A stretch of 64,000 bases of DNA, from positions 158,658,001 to 158,722,000 of the forward strand of contig OZ024740.1 in NCBI GenBank assembly GCA_964016885.1, given 5' to 3'. The notes under the pieces are model-generated. The model worked only from the letters and a program-made list of their open reading frames with translations, had not been told where the DNA came from and did no database searches. The stretch comes from Eledone cirrhosa. Lineage: Eukaryota. The position numbers were made by a program, and so were the translations under genes. Of the stretch, positions 1 through 63,711 are shown piece by piece. Each line of letters begins with the position of its first letter. The stretch's first letter is position 1.

Positions 1-3000
1 AAACCAGCAACAACACTACCAACAACCACCACACCACCAACAACACTACCAACAACCACCACACCAGCAACAACACTACCAACAACCACCACACCACCAA
101 CAACACTACCAACAACCACCACACCAGCAACAACACTACCAACAACCACCACACCACCAACAACACTACCAACAACCACCACACCACCAACAACACTACC
201 AACAACCACCACACCACCAACAACACTACCAACAACCACCACACCACCAACAACACTACCAACAACCACCACACCACCAACAACACTACCAACAACCACC
301 ACACCAGCAACAACACTACCAACAACCACCACACCACCAACAACACTACCAACAACCACCACACCACCAACAACACTACCAACAACCACCACACCACCAA
401 CAACACTACCAACAACCACCACACCACCAACAACACTACCAACAACCACCACACCACCAACAACACTACCAACAACCACCACACCACCAACAACACTACC
501 AACAACCACCACACCACCAACAACACTACCAACAACCACCACACCACCAACAACACTACCAACAACCACCACACCAGCAACAACACTACCAACAACCACC
601 ACACCACCAACAACACTACCAACAACCACCACACCACCAACAACACTACCAACAACCACCACACCACCAACAACACTACCAACAACCACCACACCACCAA
701 CAACACTACCAACAACCACCACACCACCAACAACACTACCAACAACCACCACACCACCAACAACACTACCAACAACCACCACACCAGCAACAACACTACC
801 AACAACCACCACACCACCAGCAACACTACCAACAACCACCACACCAGCAACATCACTACCAACAACCACCACACCACCAACAACACTACCAACAACCACC
901 ACACTAACAACAACACTACCAAATACCACCACACCACCAACAACACTACCAACAACCACCACACCAGCAACAACACTACCAACAACCACCACACCAGCAA
1001 CAAGACTACCAACAACCACCACACCAGCAACAACACTACCAACAACCACCACACCAGCAACAACACTACCAACGACCACCACACCAGCAACAACACTACC
1101 AACAACCACCACACCACCAACAAGACTACCAACAACCACCACACCACCAACAACGCTACCAACAACCACCACACCAACAACAACACTACCAACAACCACC
1201 ACACCAACAACAACACTACCAACAACCACCACACCAACAACAACACTACCAACAACCACCACACCAACAACAACACTACCAACAACCACCACACCAGCAA
1301 CAACACTACCAACAACCACCACACCAGCAACAACACTACCAACAACCACCACACCACCAACAAGACTACCAACAACCACCACACCACCAACAACGCTACC
1401 AACAACCACCACACCAACAACAACACTACCAACAACCACCACACCAACAACAACACTACCAACAACCACCACACCAACAACAACACTACCAACAACCACC
1501 ACACCAGCAACAACACTACCAACGACCACCACACCAGCAACAACACTACCAACAACCACCACACCACCAACAACACTACCAACAGCCACCACACCAGCAA
1601 CAACACTACCAACAACCACCACACCACCAGCAACACTACCAACAACCACCACACCACCAACAACACTACCAACAACCACCACACCACCAACAACACTACC
1701 AACAACCACCACACCAGCAACACTACCAACAGCCACCACACCACCAACAACACTACCAACAACCACCACACCAACAACACTACCAACAACCACCACACCA
1801 CCAACAACACTACCAACAACCACCACACCAGCAACACTACCAACAGCCACCACACCACCAACAACACTACCAACAACCACCACACCAACAACACTACCAA
1901 CAACCACCACACCACCAACAACACTACCAACGACCACCACACCAGCAACAACACTACCAACAGCCACCACACCACCAACAACACTACCAACAACCACCAC
2001 ACCACCAACAACACTACCAACCACCACCACACCAACAACACTACCAACAACCACCACACCACCAACAACACTACCAACAACCACCACACCAACAAACTAC
2101 CAACAACCACCACACCACCAACAACACTACCAACAGCCACCACACCACCAACAACACTACCAACAACCACCACACCACCAACAACACTACCAACAACCAC
2201 CACACCAGCAACAACACTACCAACAGCCACCACACCACCAACAACACTACCAACAACCACCACACCAGCAACAACACTACCAACAACCACCACACCACCA
2301 ACAACCAGCACACCAGCAACAACACTACCAACAACCACCACACCACCAACAACACTACCAACAACCACCACACCAGCAACAACACTACCAACAACCACCA
2401 CACCAGCAACAACACTACCAACAGCCACCACACCACCAACAACACTACCAACAACCACCACACCAGCAACAACACTACCAACAACCACCACACCACCAAC
2501 AACACTACCAACAACCACCACACCAGCAACAACACTACCAACAACCACCACACCACCAACAACACTACCAACGACCACCACACCAGCAACAACACTACCA
2601 ACAGCCACCACACCACCAACAACACTACCAACAACCACCACACCAACAACAACACTACCAACAACCACCACACCAGCAACAACACTACCAACAACCACCA
2701 CACCAGCAACAACACTACCAACAGCCACCACACCAGCAACAACACTACCAACAACCACCACACCAACAACAACACTACCAACAACCACCACACCACCAAC
2801 AACACTACCAACAACCACCACACCAGCAACAACACTACCAACAGCCACCACACCACCAACAACACTACCAACAACCACCACACCACCAACAACACTACCA
2901 ACAACCACCACACCACCAACAAGACTACCAACAACCACCACACCACCAACAACACTACCAACAACCACCACACCAGCAACACTACCAACAACCACCATAC

Positions 3001-6000
3001 CACCAACCACCACACCACCAACAACACTACCAACAACCACCACACCAGCAACACTACCAACAACCACCACACCACCAACCACCACACCACCAACAACACT
3101 ACCAACAACCACCACACCAGCAACACTACCAACAACCACCACACCAACAACAACACTACCAACAACCACCACACCACCAACAACACTACCAACAACCACC
3201 ACACCACCAACAACACTACCAACGACCACCACACCAGCAACAACACTACCAACAGCCACCACACCACCAACAACACTACCAACAACCACCACACCAACAA
3301 CAACACTACCAACAACCACCACACCAGCAACAACACTACCAACAACCACCACACCAGCAACAACACTACCAACAGCCACCACACCAGCAACAACACTACC
3401 AACAACCACCACACCAACAACAACACTACCAACAACCACCACACCACCAACAACACTACCAACAACCACCACACCAGCAACAACACTACCAACAGCCACC
3501 ACACCACCAACAACACTACCAACAACCACCACACCACCAACAACACTACCAACAACCACCACACCACCAACAAGACTACCAACAACCACCACACCACCAA
3601 CAACACTACCAACAACCACCACACCAGCAACACTACCAACAACCACCATACCACCAACCACCACACCACCAACAACACTACCAACAACCACCACACCAGC
3701 AACACTACCAACAACCACCATACCACCAACCACCACACCACCAACAACACTACCAACAACCACCACACCAGCAACACTACCAACAACCACCACACCAACA
3801 ACAACACTACCAACAACCACCACACCACCAACAACACTACCAACAACCACCACACCACCAACAACACTACCAACAACCACCACACCACCAACAACACTAC
3901 CAACAACCACCACACCAACAGAACTACCAACAACCACCACACCACCAACAACACTACCAACAACCACCACACCAGCAACAACACTACCAACAGCCACCAC
4001 ACCACCAACAACACTACCAACAACCACCACACCACCAACAACACTACCAACAACCACCACACCAACAACACTACCAACAACCACCACACCACCAACAACA
4101 CTACCAACAACCACCACACCAGCAACAACACTACCAACATCCACCACACCAGCAACAACACTACCAATAACCACCACACCACCAACAACACTACCAACAA
4201 CCACCACACCAACAACAACACTACCAACAGCCACTACACCAGCAACAACACTACCAACAGCCACCACACCACCAACAACACTACCAACAACCACCACACC
4301 ACCAACAACACTACCAACAACCACCACACCACCAACAACACTACCAACAGCCACCACACCACCAACAACACTACCAACAACCACCACACCACCAACAACA
4401 CTACCAACAACCACCACACCAGCAACAACACTACCAACAACCACCACACCACCAACAACACTACCAACAACCACCACACCAGCAACAACACTACCAACAA
4501 CCACCACACCAGCAACAACACTACCAACAACCACCACACCACCAACAACACTACCAACAACCACCACACCACCAACAACACTACCAACAACCACCACACC
4601 AGCAACAACACTACCAACAACCACCACACCAGCAACAACACTACCAACAACCACCACACCACCAACAACACTACCAACAACCACCACACCACCAACAACA
4701 CTACCAACAACCACCACACCAGCAACAACACTACCAACAACCACCACACCACCAACAACACTACCAACAACCACCACACCAGCAACAACACTACCAACAA
4801 CCACCACACCAGCAACAACACTACCAACAACCACCACACCAGCAACAACACTACCAACAACCACCACACCAGCAACAACACTACCAACAACCACCACACC
4901 ACCAACAACACTACCAACAACCACCACACCAGCAACACTACCAACAACCACCACACCACCAACAACACTACCAACATCCACCACACCAACAACACTACCA
5001 ACAACCACCACACCACCAACAACACTACCAACAACCACCACACCACCAACAACACTACCAACAGCCACCACACCACCAACAACACTACCAACAACCACCA
5101 CACCACCAACAACACTACCAACAACCACCACACCAGCAACAACACTACCAACAACCACCACACCAGCAACAACACTACCAACAGCCACCACACCAGCAAC
5201 AACACTACCAACAACCACCACACCACCAACAACACTACCAACAACCACCACACCAGCAACAACACTACCAACAACCACCACACCAGCAACAACACTACCA
5301 ACAGCCACCACACCACCAACAACACTACCAACAACCACCACACCAGCAACAACACTACCAACAACCACCACACCACCAACAACACTACCAACAACCACCA
5401 CACCACCAACAACACTACCAACAACCACCACACCACCAACAACACTACCAACGACCACCACACCAGCAACAACACTACCAACAGCCACCACACCACCAAC
5501 AACACTACCAACAACCACCACACCAACAACAACACTACCAACCACCACCACACCAACAACAACACTACCAACAACCACCACACCAGCAACAACACTACCA
5601 ACAACCACCACACCAGCAACAACACTACCAACAGCCACCACACCACTAACAACACTACCAACAACCACCACACCAACAACAACACTACCAACCACCACCA
5701 CACCAACAACAACACTACCAACAACCACCACACCAGCAACAACACTACCAACAACCACCACACCACCAACAACACTACCAACAACCACCACACCAACAAC
5801 AACACTACCAACAACCGCCACACCAGCAACAACACTACCAACCACCACCACACCAACAACAACACTACCAACAACCACCACACCAGCAACAACACTACCA
5901 ACAACCACCACACCAGCAACAACACTACCAACAGCCACCACACCACTAACAACACTACCAACAACCACCACACCAACAACAACACTACCAACCACCACCA

Positions 6001-25935: not shown

Positions 25936-26151
25936 TGAAGAAAACCATGGGTGAAAACCATTGCAAGAAAACCATGGGTGACAGAAAAATACTGAAAACA
26001 CATTGGATTCAACATATAGAACTACATAAGGGGCATGTAGTATTTCATATGACAATGTAATATAACTCTATTCCTAGTGCTCAAATGCATTGACCTACTC
26101 AACTGGAAATTAGTTTCAACTACCTAGTGTGTGTAACTCCCTGTAGGTTAA

Positions 26152-26363
26152 CCCTTTAGCATTTAAACCACCCGTATCTGACCAGAATTCTCTCACCTCT
26201 TTCTGTTCAAACCAGCAGTAACGTGCCACTCATACTTATGTTAAGGTATTGTTTTCGAAATAAATAATATCAAAATCTCATAGATTCAATATTATGTGAG
26301 ATAAAACCTTTACCATGAAAATATTATACTATAATATACAGAGAGTAATGTAAATGCTAAGGG
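26152..26363 (+). mobile_element. piggyBac-like MITE
   Basis: TTAA on both sides; TIRs CCCTTTAGCATTTA / TAAATGCTAAGGG; five related copies in the window. Confidence 0.85.
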
Positions 26364-26484: not shown

Positions 26485-26678
26485 CCCTTTAGCATTTACA
26501 TTACTCTATATTTACTATTATATTTTCATGGTAAAGGCTTTATCTCATAATTATCTCACATGATATCGAATCTATGAGATTTTGATATTTATTTTGAAAA
26601 CAACACCTTAACAGCTGGTTTGAACAGAAAGAGGTGAGAGAATTCTGGCTGGATATGGCTGGTTTAAATGCTAAAGGG
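26485..26678 (-). mobile_element. piggyBac-like MITE, inverted copy of the same family
   Basis: TTAA flanks; TIRs CCCTTTAGCATTTA / TAAATGCTAAAGGG; interior is the reverse complement of 26152-26363. Confidence 0.85.
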
Positions 26679-27027
26679 TTAAAGGTATTCAAAATGTTTC
26701 CCAGTAATAATGATTCCTGTTATCTTATCTTACTAAAACAAAACATACAATTTAATGATCAAATTTAAGAACTGGTAAATTTATATGTTTGTCAACAGTT
26801 CTCTATTTTTAAAACAAAGCTGATTTCTTGCAGGCATGTGTATGTTACCTTTTATGGTAAAATCTGCCTAATTTTGACACCATGTGCTCTGAAATAATAG
26901 CTCATTAATTGTAATTAATTTTGAAATATTATAATACTATACTTACACAATACATAATTACACATTAGATAATCAACAACTGATTAATCAGCCAATTTGA
27001 TTATTGGTCCATCCTTAGTATATATAT

Positions 27028-32626: not shown

Positions 32627-32812
32627 GAACAGATTCAGGACCCTGACGGCTGAGCTCCGGTCGTTTCGACAACTAGATCCGGATCTAGCTGTCAAAACGG
32701 CTGGAGCTCAGCTGTCGGGGTCCTAAATCTTTTCGTATTACCCGCTCTACTACCTCAAATATCGAGTACTCTGGTGGGTTATGGTCCACCTGGTTTTTAC
32801 CACACCCTATCT
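32627..32812 (+). mobile_element. Fold-back element with one-sided tail (family H4) containing the 3' half of a hammerhead
   Basis: Palindrome 32627-32734 centred on CTAGATCC|GGATCTAG; tail to 32812 abuts (TA)n; homologues at 32841-32895 and 62701-62890. Confidence 0.75.
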
Positions 32813-33859: not shown

Positions 33860-33895
33860 TCTTCTGATGAAGGACTAGCGTCCGAAACGTTAAGA
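33860..33895 (+). ncRNA. Minimal type I hammerhead ribozyme motif
   Basis: TCTT CTGATGA A GGAC TAGC GTCC GAAACGTT AAGA: intact core, 4-bp stem II, stem I TCTT/AAGA, palindromic stem III (ACGT). It sits in a ~155-bp element between TA runs. Confidence 0.8.
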
Positions 33896-34177: not shown

Positions 34178-34267
34178 CATCATTCAACAGGATATAGGCA
34201 TTTATACCACATTAGCTGCCCATCTCGGTATCATTTTAACACATTTTCTTATTTCTTATTCTTACTC

Positions 34268-34785: not shown

Positions 34786-35040
34786 TACATATATCTGAAG
34801 CTGCATGAATGTGTATTTAAACATGTCTTATTTACATATTTCTCTGTAACTTGGAAAGGACGAATAGCTTGACCTGAGTTTTGTTTCTAATTGGAACTAT
34901 TCGCAAAAGATGTGCATATCTTGTAACATTCATGGAGAAATATATAACTATTAGCTTTATAAGCCTACCAAATATGTGTAATGTGTAAGTACCAATTTAG
35001 ATATTATTAGTGTGTTTGCTGTAATTCAGTTATATATTAA

Positions 35041-35248
35041 CCCTTTACCATTTAAACTGGCCATATCCAGTCAGAATTCTCTCACCTCTTTCTTTTCAAA
35101 CTGGCCATAACCGGTCACTCATACTTATGTTAAGGTATTGTTCTCAAAATAAATAGTATCAAAATCTCATAGATTCATTATTATGTGAAATAAAGCCTTT
35201 ACCGTGAAAATTGAATAGTAAATCTAGAGTAATGTAAATACTAAAGTG
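35041..35248 (+). mobile_element. piggyBac-like MITE
   Basis: TTAA flanks, degenerate TIRs, interior matches 26152-26363. Confidence 0.8.
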
Positions 35249-35486
35249 TTAAACATTGCACTGAACTATACTATAAGTACATACCTGTACGAGAATACCT
35301 TCTTCCCATCAATGTCAGAAGCCTCAAAAATTGTAATGGTCGTCACCCTTCATTCCCTGGCTAAAAACAGTAGAACATAAAAAGGAGTCTCACTCTATTG
35401 AATTTATTTTTCCAGCTTGTCACTTGACTGTTATATCAATATTGTGTTATCAAGCTAAAGAATAAATTGCTGCTGTCTCATAAAGG

Positions 35487-37397: not shown

Positions 37398-37400
<3 letters not shown>

Positions 37401-38504
37401 ATAATAATAAATTTGAAGACTAAAATCCAAAGAGGGCTCGATAAGGATAAATATATATCAAATATATAAGAACCGTAGAGCAAATATTTATTAAAATAAC
37501 AGATTAAAATTTAAGCAAAGAATCGCTGCTTTCACCCTTAACGCCATCTTCTGAAACTAAAAAAATCAATCTGTGAACGCAGAAGTAAATATTTCGAAAA
37601 ACGTTGCAGCCGAAGGAAGACAAGAAGACGATACTTTGGTTCGTGGAAACGTTCCCTGGCAAAGAGCGGAAAAAAGCGAAGATAATACGTCATTAATAGG
37701 AGCGGTGAAAACAATTACACGCAATGACAAACCACGTTTAGTGTATAAATGAAGTCGTAGACTAATATTCTATTAGGTGGTTCCTGGAGACGTTCTCTGG
37801 CAATGAATGGGAAAAACGAAGATAATACGTCATTATGTGTATCGTTGAGAACAATTACACGCAAAGACAACAAAACCACGTTTATGGTATAACTGAAGTC
37901 GTAGACTAAAATTCTATTTAGAAACCGAATGATTCTCGGCTTCAGAGTTAAGAATAATGTAAATAAATTACAGAGGTTTTCGCGTATGCATGTGTATGTA
38001 CTTATATGGATGCATGCATAATAACCTCTGCAATTTATTTACATTATTCTTAACTCTGAAGCCGAGAATCATTCAGTTTCCTAAATAGAATTTTAGTCTA
38101 CGACTTCAGTTATACTATGTGGTTTTGTCTTTGCATGTAATTGTTCTCACCGCTCCACATAATGACGTATTATCTTCGTTTTTTCCGTTCATTGCCAGAG
38201 AACGTCTCCAGGAACCACCTCATAGAATATTAGTCTACGACTTCATTCATACCATAAACGTGGTTTTGTCTTTGCGTGTAATTGTTTTCACTGCTCCAAA
38301 TAATGACGTATTATATTCGTTTTTTTCCATTCTTTGCCAGGGAACGTTTCCACGAACCAAAGTATCGTCTTCCTGTCTTCCTTCGGTTGCAACGTTTTTC
38401 GAATTATTTACTTCTGCGTTCACAGATTGATTTCTTTAGTTTCAGAAGATCCCGTTAAGCGTGAAAGCAGCAATTCTTTGCTTAAACTTTAATCTGTTAT
38501 TTTA

Positions 38505-38512
<8 letters not shown>
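37398..38512. mobile_element. ~1.1-kb fold-back element (family H1) inserted in (TA)n
   Basis: Inverted arms ~37484-37978 and ~38023-38512, each with a ~140-bp internal direct repeat; ~86-bp unpaired extension on the left; TA tracts on both sides. Confidence 0.9.
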
Positions 38513-39587: not shown

Positions 39588-39623
39588 TCGTCTGATGGAG
39601 AACTATTGTTCGAAACGTTAAGA
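39588..39623 (+). ncRNA. Hammerhead motif, same family as 33860, core variant
   Basis: TCGT CTGATGG A GAAC TATT GTTC GAAACGTT AAGA; flanks homologous to 33830-33985. Confidence 0.65.
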
Positions 39624-40564: not shown

Positions 40565-42730
40565 ATGATCACCACCACCACCACCACCAATGCTCCCTCT
40601 TCTACCATCACCACCACCACCACCTCCACCAATGCTCCCTCTCCTACCATCACCACCGCTACCACCACCACCACCAACACCACCACATCCACCACCACCA
40701 CCAATGCTCCCTCTCCTACCATCACCACCACCACCACCTCCACCAATGCTCCCTCTCCTACCATCACCACCGCCACCACCACCACCATCACCACCACCAC
40801 CACCTCCACCAATGCTCCCTCTCCTACCATCACCACCGCTACCACCACCACCACCACCACCACCACCACCTCCACCAATGCTCCCTCTCCTACCATCACC
40901 ACCACCACCAACACCACCACATCCACCACCTCCACCACCTCCACCAATGCTCCCTCTCCTACCATCACCACCGCCACCACCACCACCACCACCACCTCCA
41001 CCACATCCACCAATGCTCCCTTTCCTACCATCACCACCACCACCACCACCACCACCACCACCTCCACCACCTCCACCAATGCTCCCTCACCTACCACCAC
41101 CACCACCACCACCACCACCACCACCTCCACCACCTCCACCACCTCCACCAATGCTCCCTCTCCTACCATCACCACCACCACCACCACCACCACCACCACC
41201 ACCTCCACCACCTCCACCAATGCTCCCTCTCCTACCATCACCACCACCACCACCACCACCACCACCACCTCCACCACCTCCACCAATGCTCCCTCTCCTA
41301 CCATCACCACCACCACCTCCACCACCATCACCACCACCTCCACCTCCACCAATGCTCCCTCTCCTACCATCACCACCGCCACCACCACCACCACCTCCAC
41401 CACCTCCACCAATGCGCCCTCACCTACCATCACCACCACCACCACCACCACCTCCACCACCTCCACCAATGCGCCCTCACCTACCATCACCACCACCACC
41501 ACCACCATCTCCACCACCTCCACCAATGCGCCCTCACCTACCATCATCACCACCACCATCACCACCACCACCACCACCACCACCTCCACCACCTCCACCT
41601 CCACCACCTCCACCAATGCGCCCTCACCTACCATCACCACCACCACCACCACCACCACCACCACCACCACCACCTCCACCACCTCCACCAATGCGCCCTC
41701 ACCTACCATCACCACCACCACCACCACCACCACCACCACCTCCACCAATGCGCCCTCACCTACCACCACCACCACCACCACCACCACCTCCACCACCTCC
41801 ACCAATGCGCCCTCACCTACCATCACCACCACCACCACCACCACCTCCACCACCTCCACCAATGCGCCCTCACCTACCATCACCACCACCACCACCACCA
41901 CCACCACCACCACCACCACCTCCACCACCTCCACCAATGCGCCCTCACCTACCATCACCACCACCACCACCACCACCACCACCACCTCCACCAATGCGCC
42001 CTCACCTACCACCACCACCACCACCACCACCACCTCCACCACCTCCACCAATGCGCCCTCTCCTACCATCACCACCACCACCACCACCACCACCACCACC
42101 TCCACCAATGCGCCCTCACCTACCATCATCAGCACTCACCACCACCATCGCCACCACCAATGCTCCCTCTCCTACCACCACCACCACCAATGCTCCCTCT
42201 CCTACCATCACCACCACATCCACCACCACCACCACATCCACCACCACCACCAATATGCCCTCTCCTACAATCATCAGCACTCACCACCACCACCACCGCC
42301 ACCACTGCCGCCAATGCGCCCTCACCTACCACCACCACCACCACCACCACCACCACCACATCAACCACCTCCACTGCCGCCAATGCACCCTCTCCTACCA
42401 CCACCACCACCTCCACCAATGCTCCCTCTCCTACCATATTCACCACCACCACCACATCCACCACCACCACTTCCACCTCCACCAATGCACCCTCTCCTAC
42501 CCTCATCACTGCCACCACCACCACCACATCAACCACCACCTCCACCAATGCGCCCTCTCCTACCATCATCATCATCACCACCACCACCAACACCACCACA
42601 TCCACCACCACCACCACCACCACCTCCACCAATGTGCCCTCTCCTACCATCATCATCACCACCACCACCACCTCCACCAATGCTCCCTCTCCTACAATCA
42701 CCACCACCACTACCACCACAGCCACATTCC
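40565..42730 (+). repeat. Compound minisatellite: fixed core ACCAATGC(T/G/A)CCCTC(T/A)CCTACC separated by variable (ACC)n; possible Thr-rich mucin-like exon (TNAPSPT+Tn)
   Basis: Roughly 40 cores are visible. The main core variants are synonymous in the TNAPSPT frame; frameshifts at ~42130 and ~42275. The repeat is certain, its coding status is not. Confidence 0.9.
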
Positions 42731-58400: not shown

Positions 58401-59559
58401 ATCATCATCATCATCATCATCACCGTTTTACGTCCGTTCTTCCACGCTAGCATGGGTTAGACGGGTTGTCCTGTTGTGGGCAGTGTCTGGTCGGCTGACC
58501 ATGCCTTGCTCATACAGGAACTGATCTGGCTTGATTTCTACAGCTGGATGCCCTTCCTAACACCAACCTCATTTACAGTGAGTGCTGGGTGCTTTTTCGT
58601 GGCGCCTACACGTCCACTTTACAGTGTGGGCTGGGTGCTTTTTTGCCGTGGCACCTCCACGACCACCTTGCGGTGGGGGGGGGGGGGGGGCATATTGTTT
58701 ATATGCTTCAGCATGGGAGGTCGGGTACCCTGTATTACTGCGTGACGCCAGAAGTCACGGTCGTGTGTCATTGACTTTGAGAGGTGTAGTTGGGTAAGGT
58801 CGGCTTTTATCACCTCATCCCAAGTCATCTTGGGTCTCCCCACTCTGCGGTTTCCATCAACTTCTAGTGCTCTGCACCTTTTTATGCAGCTGTCATCCTT
58901 CATACGCATCACATGTCCATACCAGCGTAACCGCCTCTCCTGCACGCAGCATTTGATTCCTCTTATGCTCAGTCTCTCTCTCAATTCCTTTATGCTTTGT
59001 CGTTCACGTATATTACTGTTACACATCCATCGGAGCATGCAGGCTTCGTTTCTCTCTAATCTACGTAAGTCTTCCACCTTCAGCGCCCAGGTCTCACTAC
59101 CATGCAACATCGCTGTTCGGATACACGCATCATACATTCTGCCTTTCATTCTGAGGGAGAAGCCTTTTGCAGCTAGCAGTGGTAGTAGTTCCCTAAACTT
59201 CTTCCGTCCCGTTCTTACCCTAGTTATTGTACTTTCTGAGCACCCACCTCCGTTGCTAATTCGGTCACCTAGGTAGCAGAAGCTGTCTACTGTTTCTACA
59301 GGGCCCTCCCAGAGATTGGTGGTACTTGTTTCCTGTGGCTGTTTGCTTGCTGTTTCAGCACAGCTGCTGCATGTGAATCCTACATTCTTAATTAAGCTTC
59401 CTGAGATCCCGCTACATCTCTTGTGTACCCATTGTTTGCATTTGGGGAAGAGAATGGAGTTCCTACCTACACCTTTCCTACATACTGAGCAAGGCCATTT
59501 CCCTGAGGGGATCTGGGTTCTGTTTTCTCGTCTACTTATAAGGACCTTAGTCTTTGTCG
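58401..59559 (-). mobile_element. 5'-truncated RTE-clade LINE: RT C-terminal part with PHD-like finger, 3' UTR and (GAT)n tail
   Basis: Open frame KTKVL..WPCSVCRKGVG..KCKQWVHKRCSG..FTCSSC..FCYLGD..MLHGSETW..RRLRWYGHVMRM..GRPKMTW; these motifs are typical of RTE ORFs. Confidence 0.9.
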
Positions 59560-59671
59560 TTATATATATATAACATTATATATATATAACGAGTGACCCT
59601 AGTCTCACTCGTTATATATATATAACGAGTGGTTACTCCTTCATTACGTTTATATATATATATATATATAT

Positions 59672-60668: not shown

Positions 60669-60897
60669 AGTCCACGCTGTAATGTGGCCGTGTAGGCAAC
60701 ACGGTAAAAACCTCCCAGACCCACACTGTAAATGTGGTTGGTGTTAGGAAGGGCATCCAACTGTAGAAAACCTGCCAGACAGTCCTATGCGAGCAAGACA
60801 ATCACTCTTGCCTCAAGTGGGACTACCCCCGTCCAAACCCATGCAAGCGTGGAACACGGACGTTAAACGTTGATGATGATGATGATGATGATGATGA
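60669..60897 (+). mobile_element. Short RTE-family 3'-end element
   Basis: Near-identical to 56188-56411. Confidence 0.8.
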
Positions 60898-61036
60898 TAT
60901 ATACATATATATATACATATATATATACATATATATATACATATATATATATATATACATATATATATACATATATATATACATATATATATACATATAT
61001 ATATACATTTATACATATATATATATATATATATTT

Positions 61037-61107
<71 letters not shown>

Positions 61108-61110
<3 letters not shown>

Positions 61111-61442
61111 GAGGTGAGTTTTATTGTAGAACAATAAAACTATGCATATATCGGATATGTATCACTCAACAGTTTATAGGACTGGAGTATATATAAGAAG
61201 AAATGAAAAGATGGTTAAAAAAGTTCTATATATTTTATTATGCGCATTTCAAAAACAAATATCATCCTTGGACGATAGTTGTGTTCTCATCAAATAAAAT
61301 AAGGTAACATGTTTTTTAGGCGTCATATCATGTTACCTTATTTTATCTGATGAGAACACAACTATCGTCCTAGGATGTTTTTGAAATGCGCATAATAAAA
61401 TATATGGAACTTTTTTAACCATCTTTTAATTTCCTCTTATAC
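61108..61442. mobile_element. Fold-back HHR element (family H3), opposite orientation to 54291
   Basis: Tail 61108-61192, palindrome ~61193-61442, TA tracts on both sides. Confidence 0.85.
61339..61402 (+). ncRNA. Minimal type I hammerhead ribozyme motif
   Basis: TATTTTAT CTGATGA GAACA...TGTTTTT GAAATGCGCATA ATAAAATA: 8-bp stem I, intact core, palindromic ATGCGCAT stem III, AUA triplet. Confidence 0.8.
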
Positions 61443-61527
61443 ATATATATATACATATATTTACATATTTATATATACATATATTTATATGTATACATAT
61501 ATTTATATATACATATATTTATGTATT

Positions 61528-61585
<58 letters not shown>

Positions 61586-61674
61586 CACACACATACACAC
61601 ACATTCATATGTATATATGATATATATATATTTATATATATATATATATATATACATATATTTATATATTTTTA

Positions 61675-61705
<31 letters not shown>

Positions 61706-61763: not shown

Positions 61764-61893
61764 TAATATCGAATCTATTAGATTTTGATATTATTTATTT
61801 TGAGAACAATACGTTAACATCAGTATGAGTGGCCAATTACAACTGGTTTGAACAGAAGAGGTGAGAGAATTTGACCGTTTAAATGCTAAAGGG
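61764..61893 (-). mobile_element. piggyBac-like MITE, partial
   Basis: One TIR TAAATGCTAAAGGG|TTAA plus family interior. Confidence 0.75.
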
Positions 61894-61913
61894 TTAAACA
61901 TTAATCTGTACTG

Positions 61914-62158: not shown

Positions 62159-62202
<44 letters not shown>

Positions 62203-62220
62203 CAGTACAGATTAATGTTT

Positions 62221-62373
62221 CCTTGAAATATGTATAATGATATAAATATGGTTTTATAAATATAGTTTCCATTTGTTAATATCGTATTTTTTACTCCAAT
62301 TATTTGTTGAGTGCTTTATATCAGTTATAAAAATATTTGCTTGTTGCATCACAACAATTTAAATAGAAATTTT
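62221..62373 (+). mobile_element. Truncated single-arm copy of family H2
   Basis: Starts at CCTTGAAATATGTATAAT (HHR 3' half) and continues through the arm and tail of 63553-63712. Confidence 0.7.
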
Positions 62374-62700
62374 ACATATATATATATATATATATCATAT
62401 ATACTAGATGGTGAGACATCGTGTAAAAGGTGATTTGAGAAGTATACTATTGCCACAGGTGTTAATATACAGTAAAACTATCTAATGGGGCTTATTCATG
62501 ATAATGGCACCAATTCTAAAATATTTAATGTAAAATATGATTTCTCATTTACGTTTGTGCAATAAGCATTATCAATAAAAATTATACTGTATTGCTCTTT
62601 GAAAGAAAGGGAGACAGTGAATTATACAACCCTCCTCCTCCTATTGATCTATATTTTCAAGTATGTATGTATCATATATATATTAGTATTCATATATATA

Positions 62701-62890
62701 ACGAAGGAAGTGTGGCAAGGAACCAGATGGACCATAACGCACCAGAGTACTCAATACTTAGGGTAGCAGTGTGGGTAATAGGAAAAGGTTTAACCCCGAC
62801 GGCAGAACTCAAGCCGCTTCGACGGCTAGTCCAGAAATAGCCATCGAAATGGCTCGAGCTCTGCCATCGGGGTTAAACATTTTCCTATTA
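62701..62890 (-). mobile_element. Fold-back element family H4
   Basis: Palindrome 62776-62890 plus a tail that is the reverse complement of 32735-32812. Confidence 0.8.
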
Positions 62891-63309: not shown

Positions 63310-63314
<5 letters not shown>

Positions 63315-63711
63315 ATATTAAATAAATTGAAACTATATTTATAAAACCATATTTATTCTATTATATATATATTTCAAGGGTTCCAAAAACTTTGGTACGC
63401 TTTCATCAGATAAAATACAAAGTGTGTTTATAAACTTTTGACATAGACAAGGAAGGAAAATTCAACTGATAAGGTATGTTCCTTGGCTATGTCAAAATTT
63501 ATAAAACACACTTTGTATTTTATTTGATGAAAGCGTACCAAAGTTTTTGGTACCCTTGAAATATATATAATAGAATAAATATGGTTTTATAAATATAGTT
63601 TCCATTTATTTAATATCATTGAATATTTACTCCGGAAAACTGCCGAGTGCTCTGAATCAGTTATAAACATTTATATTTGTTGAATTTCCAACAAATTAAA
63701 TATCCCTTCTG

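Follow-up and report, generated by a model that had tools for sequence, protein, structure and literature searches.

Hammerheads with a small palindromic helix III in the pLTRs of metazoan Penelope-like elements (PLEs) were reportedly described by Lunse, Weinberg and Breaker in 2016. The joining of two ribozymes through a palindromic helix III has been published for both PLEs and animal retrozymes (PMC4209133, in its accessible part; reviews PMC6765202 and PMC6466107). In the minimal hammerheads of Cervera and De la Pena 2014 (PMC4209133), as described in that part, helix I is 4-5 bp long, an extra base lies between positions 9 and 10.1, stem II opens with a G10.1-C11.1 pair and there is essentially no helix III; dimers and trimers were cleaved weakly and the monomer was not, and cleavage as a same-strand dimer was proposed. 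Better cleavage as dimers is recorded for hammerheads with a short stem III there and in the available text of PMC7229834, according to which cloned single repeats from coral and mussel cleave and a stem III of 2 bp with a tetraloop is the invertebrate form. The non-LTR retrozymes of animals have been proposed to be non-autonomous PLE derivatives, and their axolotl forms cleave better as dimers (PMC7229834 and Li, Clavereau and Pollet 2026, 10.64898/2026.07.22.740005, each in its available text).

On the insertion side, a PLE protein acts on both strands of AT-rich DNA, which it nicks and extends, and primes at two internal RNA sites that bound the tail; the PLE hammerhead cleaves only when the protein is present, and uncut RNA is the main substrate (PMC11167929). 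An inverted, 5'-truncated partner copy and a one-sided tail of 30-40 bp are standard for PLE insertions in the accessible part of 10.1101/2021.04.23.441226. A literature search, which was incomplete and ran without supplements, found no description of an octopus hammerhead and, among the papers listed, none on a template-pairing role for the hammerhead palindrome.

The motif analysed here lies at 61339-61402 on the plus strand of the window, that is, of the whole 64-kb stretch of Eledone cirrhosa DNA that was analysed. It sits in one arm of a two-armed insertion (A1) of a repeat family, A, that has a homologue, B, in the same window. Compared with the hammerheads of Cervera and De la Pena in the accessible text of PMC4209133, it shares the type I topology, the palindrome made up of 15.2-16.2 and loop 3, the presence of copies 100-700 bp apart on opposite strands and, in another family of the window, a U3/A8 variant. 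It differs in its longer stem I (8 bp against their 4-5 bp), in having no extra base after A9, in the base of stem II, which is G-U or A-U here and G-C in theirs, in retaining a 2-bp stem III and in being linked to no RT gene. With a G-U pair at the base of its own stem II, the motif does not bear out the label 'minimal' used in a preliminary description of this DNA.

Like the insertions of endonuclease-bearing PLEs (10.1101/2021.04.23.441226, available text; Frangieh et al. 2024, PMC11167929), A1 has an inverted arm, a one-sided tail between two fixed 3' ends and an AT-rich or microsatellite target, and its family includes copies that span the uncut ribozyme. Unlike the insertions described in those available texts, the tail between the short and long 3' ends is about 80-85 nt rather than 30-40, and most copies are no longer than about 255 nt, with a fixed 5' start and no ORF. 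The non-coding, AT-rich character, a unit of 170-400 nt and a type I hammerhead with 2 bp and a tetraloop are shared with animal non-LTR retrozymes as the available text of PMC7229834 and of Li, Clavereau and Pollet 2026 (10.64898/2026.07.22.740005) describes them, whereas no head-to-tail tandem was found at A1 or among the joints listed. On sequence, the A1 motif appears to resemble the dimer-type hammerheads of PLEs and retrozymes and to carry the footprint of a PLE; nothing found here places it in an autonomous PLE, among the minimal hammerheads or in a tandem retrozyme.

Anatomy of the motif

The elements CUGANGA, GAAA and NUH are arranged at 61339-61402 around three helices, open at stem I, as in a type I hammerhead (Table 1). 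The perfect stem I and intact core claimed for it earlier both held up, with all eight pairs of stem I Watson-Crick and every core element present. A relaxed pattern scan of 22701-64000 found ten sites, nine of them with a palindromic stem III and three with a perfect core and an 8-bp stem I. When the same scan was applied to 60 local dinucleotide shuffles with a stem I threshold of at least 4 bp, 100 matches were obtained, of which five were palindromic and none combined a perfect core with an 8-bp stem I. The motif goes beyond chance and is a real but damaged copy.

Table 1. Positions of the hammerhead motif, the insertions that carry it and related features (window coordinates)
Feature	Position	Strand	Description or basis
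Type I hammerhead motif	61339..61402	+	Sequence, pattern scan, folding, arm alignment
Stem I	61339-61346 with 61395-61402	+	Watson-Crick 8/8
Core CUGAUGA	61347-61353	+	Sequence
Stem II	61354-61382	+	Private 7-nt deletion
GAA	61383-61385	+	Sequence
Palindromic stem III ATGCGCAT (A15.1 to U16.1)	61386-61393	+	Monomer form is 2 bp plus GCGC loop
H17 = A	61394	+	Predicted cut directly 3' of A61394
Insertion A1, short-end arm	61309..61442	+	About 20 nt of upstream sequence, ribozyme, 40 nt downstream, (TA)n at end
Insertion A1, long-end arm	61110..61311	-	Sister hammerhead and one-sided tail of about 80 nt
Sister hammerhead in A1 long-end arm	61301-61231	-	Core at 61293, C3 -> U at 61293, stem II full
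Left (TA)n-type flank of A1	60897..61107	.	Repeat analysis
Right (TA)n-type flank of A1	61438..61705	.	Repeat analysis
Insertion A2 (second of family A), short-end arm	54290..54456	-	Starts at the fixed 5' point of the family; of the family-A hammerheads its own is the best preserved (core at 54390, palindrome at 54344-54337)
Insertion A2, long-end arm	54457..54604	+	Begins just 5' of GAA; 65/66 letters match the other arm in the overlap
Insertion B1 (homologous family B, two-armed)	63310..63710	.	Hammerheads 63409(-) and 63524(+); ATATATAT-type palindrome
Insertion B2 (family B)	52640..53055	.	Hammerhead 52948(+); damaged sister on minus strand
Tail-start hairpin TACTCC...GAGTG	61164..61189(-), 54520-54545, 52732(-), 62292, 63628		Lies past the short end, where the tail starts; seen in each of the five long arms of both families
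ATGCGCAT palindrome	4 places in window		Family A
ATATATAT palindrome	52948(+), 63524(+); 10-nt version at 63409(-)		Family B
Minimal hammerhead with ACGT, unrelated	33860..33895 (33864)	+	Stem I of 4 bp, G-C at the base of stem II, one extra A following the core
Second ACGT motif, altered core	near 39594		Relaxed scan
Hammerhead with ACCGGT, U3/A8 core variant, unrelated	54196..54233 (54229)	-	Core of second copy at 47901(-)

No Rfam hammerhead model matched the motif at gathering score, none was present among the 32 matches to 61100-61450 at E<=10, which consisted of miRNA-type hairpin noise only, and none was among the 150 of 208 matches listed in a further search. The isolated 81-mer folded no better than shuffles (z 0.46). 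As Rfam gave no match and the isolated fold does not stand out, the case is made by the anatomy of the motif and by variation within the family. A pattern scan of metagenome contigs returned no matches.

The description of this copy as the best preserved did not survive comparison with its relatives. Stem II is 7 nt shorter than that of the sister arm, and its folding energy is -0.5 kcal/mol (61347+) against -9.8 in the sister (61293-) and -8.4 in the copy at 54390(-), which is a better-preserved hammerhead. The 7 nt absent at 61354-61382 are present in the sister arm and in reads (124/380 and 152/495). The idea that stem III is reduced to a palindrome was right in so far as ATGCGCAT is present, but 61386-61393 can also be drawn as a 2-bp stem (A-U, U-A) that closes a loop of 4 nt.

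Other hammerheads in the window

The four palindromes listed in the preliminary description (ATGCGCAT, ATATATAT, ACGT and ACCGGT) were all located. The ACGT motif at 33864(+) fits the definition of a minimal hammerhead, unlike that at 61339-61402. The U3/A8 covariation in the core is seen at 54229(-) and 47901(-), and possibly also at 34260. In the family-B ribozyme at 63353-63417(-) the palindrome is longer by one TA unit (10 nt), making a 3-bp monomer stem III possible; that of its sister arm is 8 nt.

A large two-armed inverted insertion at 37400-38510, with two 140-bp tandem units in each arm, contains a hammerhead-like motif with the core CAGAAGA, and related pieces lie near 53290 and 61715. 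Its stem III region is not palindromic, and from the sequence it may be an exception to the palindrome rule or no ribozyme at all.

Structure and abundance of the insertions

A1 consists of two back-to-back arms between (TA)n tracts, one with a short and one with a long 3' end, and this two-ended layout is repeated in A2, B1 and B2. Within each of the four two-armed loci the arms are closely similar (111/117, 65/66, 142/147 and 131/138 identities), compared with 126/145 between A1 and A2. The A1 arms differ at 6 of 117 letters and by a gap. Families A and B are homologous through the ribozyme and the tail, with 118 identities in a local alignment. Each of the four family-A arms in the window crosses the cut site uncut, and three of them include the whole ribozyme. 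The hairpin TACTCC...GAGTG found in every long arm is a candidate RT-binding or priming signal, judging by its position. The short-end arms of B1 and B2 likewise begin at about the CAGTTGAA motif, as does family A at its fixed start (54452-54456). A decayed long arm of family B at 62190-62385 has ATATGTAT where the palindrome stood and no intact core.

The family joints start at 54452-54456 in 14 of the 15 listed (41 in all) and run to scattered places at 54505-54585; only A, AT or ATA lies between the joined parts in 9 of the 12 rows listed. Measured from the cut, the short-end arm usually has a single fixed starting point 121 nt upstream, and the long end is reached 134 nt downstream. The family-A unit is non-coding and about 255 nt long (121+134); its 5' start is fixed, it has two 3' ends, and at both of these the loose ends consist of (TA)n. 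With its type I hammerhead it falls in the range of about 170-400 nt of the non-coding units of non-LTR retrozymes. A minority of copies (7 contigs and 228 reads at 54462) run past the fixed start into other sequence, and these possibly derive from a longer parent. Family A is abundant in public runs: matching reads number 4909-5624 in each RAD run and matching contigs 1917-3789 in each large contig run, read depth not being taken as copy number.

The RT and GIY-YIG ORF that would stand next to a pLTR was found beside no family-A arm within the 64-kb window. Head-to-tail joints of family-A units were absent from the 14 joints at A1 and the 15 of 41 listed at A2. No second same-strand tandem copy was found at either family-A locus in the window, where the partner of 61339-61402 is antisense, and the contigs surveyed were short. 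The inverted partner copy with a one-sided tail and the AT-rich/microsatellite target are those of Penelope-like elements, and insertion by a Penelope-type jumping gene appears likely, this footprint being the one line of evidence for PLE mobilization. Two 3' ends, two arms and an uncut ribozyme in all four family-A arms would be expected, since a PLE protein primes at two internal sites on uncut RNA; the fixed ends and uncut copies fit that in vitro result on unprocessed RNA (PMC11167929).

Conservation of the palindrome

The loops of families A and B are GCGC and ATAT, respectively, and are both palindromic with all four inner positions changed. The earlier statement that self-complementarity is kept while sequence is not was confirmed by these homologous families. 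At this base composition the chance of a palindromic loop is about 0.09 per family and about 0.009 for two. That palindromy is kept despite changed letters supports selection for dimer pairing; the contribution of family B is weakened by ATAT being also local microsatellite. The palindrome itself is a known feature, to which this finding adds one more example. Two homologous families that have changed four loop bases and are still self-complementary provide a natural comparison favouring pairing selection in vivo, which matters since PLE hammerheads cleave poorly in vitro.

The palindrome also appears conserved among the copies listed. In public runs on A2 the 40 variants listed, of 77, include none in 54335-54356, the segment of the minus arm that holds H17, the palindrome and GAA; in one run (X3) the unpaired positions neighbouring this segment vary at 13-53%. 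Low-level palindrome variants could exist among the 37 rows at A2 and the 58 at A1 beyond those listed. A stem III of at most 2 bp with a palindromic loop, the dimer-type arrangement, is kept across the variants listed. Among DNA-run changes listed at paired positions of stems I and II, pairing was kept in 9/9, for which the probability is 0.008 if they are independent transitions; the nine may have been inherited together. A further run (X7) yielded one 60-letter contig; it differs at a single position, which lies outside the palindrome, and is not enough to base a cross-species claim on.

Variants 61245 and 54464, the only palindrome-breaking ones listed, were set aside as RAD ascertainment because they are found in 0-1 contigs in the large contig runs and because the reads end 3 letters away at a new AATT(C) end. 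This read end presumably reflects an EcoRI cut.

Folding energies, which ignore tertiary contacts, favour the double-hammerhead fold only when the palindrome is intact: relative to two monomers folded as hammerheads, the double-hammerhead dimer gains 19.9 kcal/mol, an advantage that falls to 12.0 when one inner base is changed and to 2.8 when two are. The GC-rich palindrome duplex has an energy of -10.5 kcal/mol, and the hammerhead monomer fold of family A lies 4-8 kcal/mol above the free fold. For the isolated 64-mer (61339-61402), folding as a dimer gains 3.5 kcal/mol over two free monomers, and an inactive dimer has an advantage of 11.9 kcal/mol over the double hammerhead; for 54390(-) the latter gap is 1.0. 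The 54390(-) copy is a ready construct for an assay of monomer versus dimer. Classification as a dimer-type hammerhead fits PMC4209133 (accessible part) and PMC6765202, the palindromic loops of both families and the requirement of the double-hammerhead fold for an intact palindrome. Obligate cleavage as a dimer would go further and is not established, since invertebrate hammerheads with 2 bp and a tetraloop cleave in single-ribozyme constructs (PMC7229834, available text).

The antisense arm and the read-through hairpin

RNA read through A1 is predicted to fold into a hairpin of about 117 bp, with an energy of -172 kcal/mol for one strand and -171 for the other, in which the whole ribozyme is paired to the sister arm. 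The A1 ribozyme is predicted from this model to be buried, or silenced, by its own antisense arm. The partner copy was correctly described earlier as antisense, its core lying at 61293(-). It needs no explanation in terms of the ribozyme, because a two-armed PLE insertion accounts for it, and the arm is likely a by-product of such an insertion into (TA)n. The conclusion then drawn, that dimerization must occur in trans, is logically right at A1 but probably beside the point for a decayed copy that lies in a -172 kcal/mol hairpin and has such a by-product for its partner. The palindrome was most likely selected in the source elements rather than at this locus. The palindrome of the sister arm was also considered as a partner in cis and rejected; the base that follows it does not continue into a partner strand for stem I, and instead the entire arm is paired.

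In one public run (X5; 88 million letters from another sample, kind not on record), A>G/T>C made up 19/37 of the changes at 54286-54612, compared with 3/22 in X3 (Fisher p 0.005), with both orientations of the family affected. In seven contigs of this run the four-A run beside the palindrome reads GGGG. These changes look like A-to-I editing of family-A double-stranded RNA, X5 not being confirmed as RNA.

Competing explanations

We favour, with a probability of roughly 0.7, an explanation in which the type I hammerhead with its palindromic stem III belongs to an abundant repeat of about 255 nt, whose uncut RNA a Penelope-type reverse transcriptase would have copied into (TA)n, and in which the copy at A1 is decayed and buried. 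The two 3' ends of the family would then be two priming sites on the RNA and the antisense arm an insertion by-product. In the source elements the palindromes would let two same-strand ribozymes pair into a double hammerhead, the partner being either another RNA or a tandem neighbour in the source locus; intact copies would be able to spread thanks to weak cleavage by the monomer. Dimer cleavage, if it occurs, would most likely belong to those source elements that have a same-strand partner.

One proposal for the source is a tandem locus cut by double hammerheads in cis to give a circle of about 255 nt, as in retrozymes, on which two primings would each run to the start of the other and so fix the 5' start just behind the long end. 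This is compatible with the favoured explanation, for which it names a source, and we regard it as possible if somewhat doubtful. The fixed start is followed by only A, AT or ATA in most of the rows listed, like the AT after the long end, the unit of 121+134 nt is of retrozyme size, and Li et al. 2026 (10.64898/2026.07.22.740005, in the text available) derive retrozymes from pLTRs. The joints listed, however, include none that is head-to-tail, the letters beyond the long end are (TA)n, and some copies continue past the fixed start.

It is less probable, though still to be reckoned with, that the 2-bp stem III with its tetraloop cleaves alone, helped by contacts between stems I and II or by the PLE protein, so that the palindrome would be optional or would boost the rate. 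Such a stem can be drawn at 61386-61393, and in the accessible part of PMC7229834 a stem of 2 bp with a tetraloop is called 'similar to invertebrate HHRs' and cloned single repeats cleave at about 0.8/min (coral) and 0.1/min (mussel). Cleavage of the anole PLE hammerhead only with protein (PMC11167929) would suit this reading, as would a mismatch common to families A and B at the fourth position of the long stem II, a possible contact site. It is opposed by the composition of stem III, in which both pairs are A-U, by the cost of the family-A monomer fold relative to the free fold and by the palindromic loop of both homologous families.

A tentative synthesis, to which we give similarly limited credence, is that a ribozyme RNA of about 255 nt, possibly a circle, would be copied by a dimeric PLE protein from two fixed priming sites, with the palindrome acting as a pairing switch that is silent singly and becomes active, or pairs templates, when two same-strand units meet. 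If this were true, the fixed 5' start would mark where one RT meets the priming site of the other, and the family would be a direct read-out of two-ended PLE insertion.

We consider it improbable that the main role of the palindrome is to join two template RNAs, each serving one arm, in a dimeric PLE particle, and that cleavage is of secondary importance. The anole PLE protein is a predicted dimer that extends both strands and does not need cleavage (PMC11167929), the arms in the window continue unbroken through the cut site and the palindrome duplex is GC-rich. Against this, the arms of all four two-armed loci match each other as members of one subfamily, well above the A1-A2 figure, the long arms in the joints listed stop near the short-end site, which a single RNA shared by both arms would predict, and Naiad PLEs make inverted insertions without hammerheads (10.1101/2021.04.23.441226, available text).

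The suggestion in the preliminary description, that A1 RNA dimerizes in trans with other transcripts and is cut after 61394, is very improbable. An intact core and stem I, an isolated dimer more stable than two free monomers and a family abundant enough for partners to exist speak for it. Opposed to these are the nearly unstable stem II at 61354-61382, the greater stability of the inactive dimer than of the double hammerhead, the read-through hairpin, the differences and gap between the A1 arms, which mark a drifting copy, and the editing-like changes in X5, which point to long double-stranded RNA in family A. Finally, that the hammerhead is a chance motif or a side effect of AT-rich inverted repeats, in keeping with the missing Rfam match, the unexceptional isolated fold and the microsatellite look of the ATAT loops, is scarcely credible and is largely refuted by the shuffles (no comparable match in 60, against three in the real sequence) and by variation among copies that preserves pairing, and the GCGC loop is unlike microsatellite.

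Other features of the window

Several features of the window are unrelated to the hammerhead. A 22.7-kb array of a 30-bp unit occupies 3-22741 and has long open frames, rich in Thr/Pro or in Gln/His; from its sequence it may be either a satellite or a mucin-like exon. A 2-kb CAC-rich array with 57/66-bp periods is present at 40570-42720, with open frames of more than 770 codons. The 318-codon open frame at 58619-59575(-) resembles the reverse transcriptase of an RTE-type LINE at its 3' end. A MITE-like family with TAACCCTTTAGCATT terminal inverted repeats is represented at 26150-26345, 26485-26680, 35040-35250, 46790-47010 and 61800-61900, and short near-palindromic elements of one family are found at 32640-32725 and 62795-62880.
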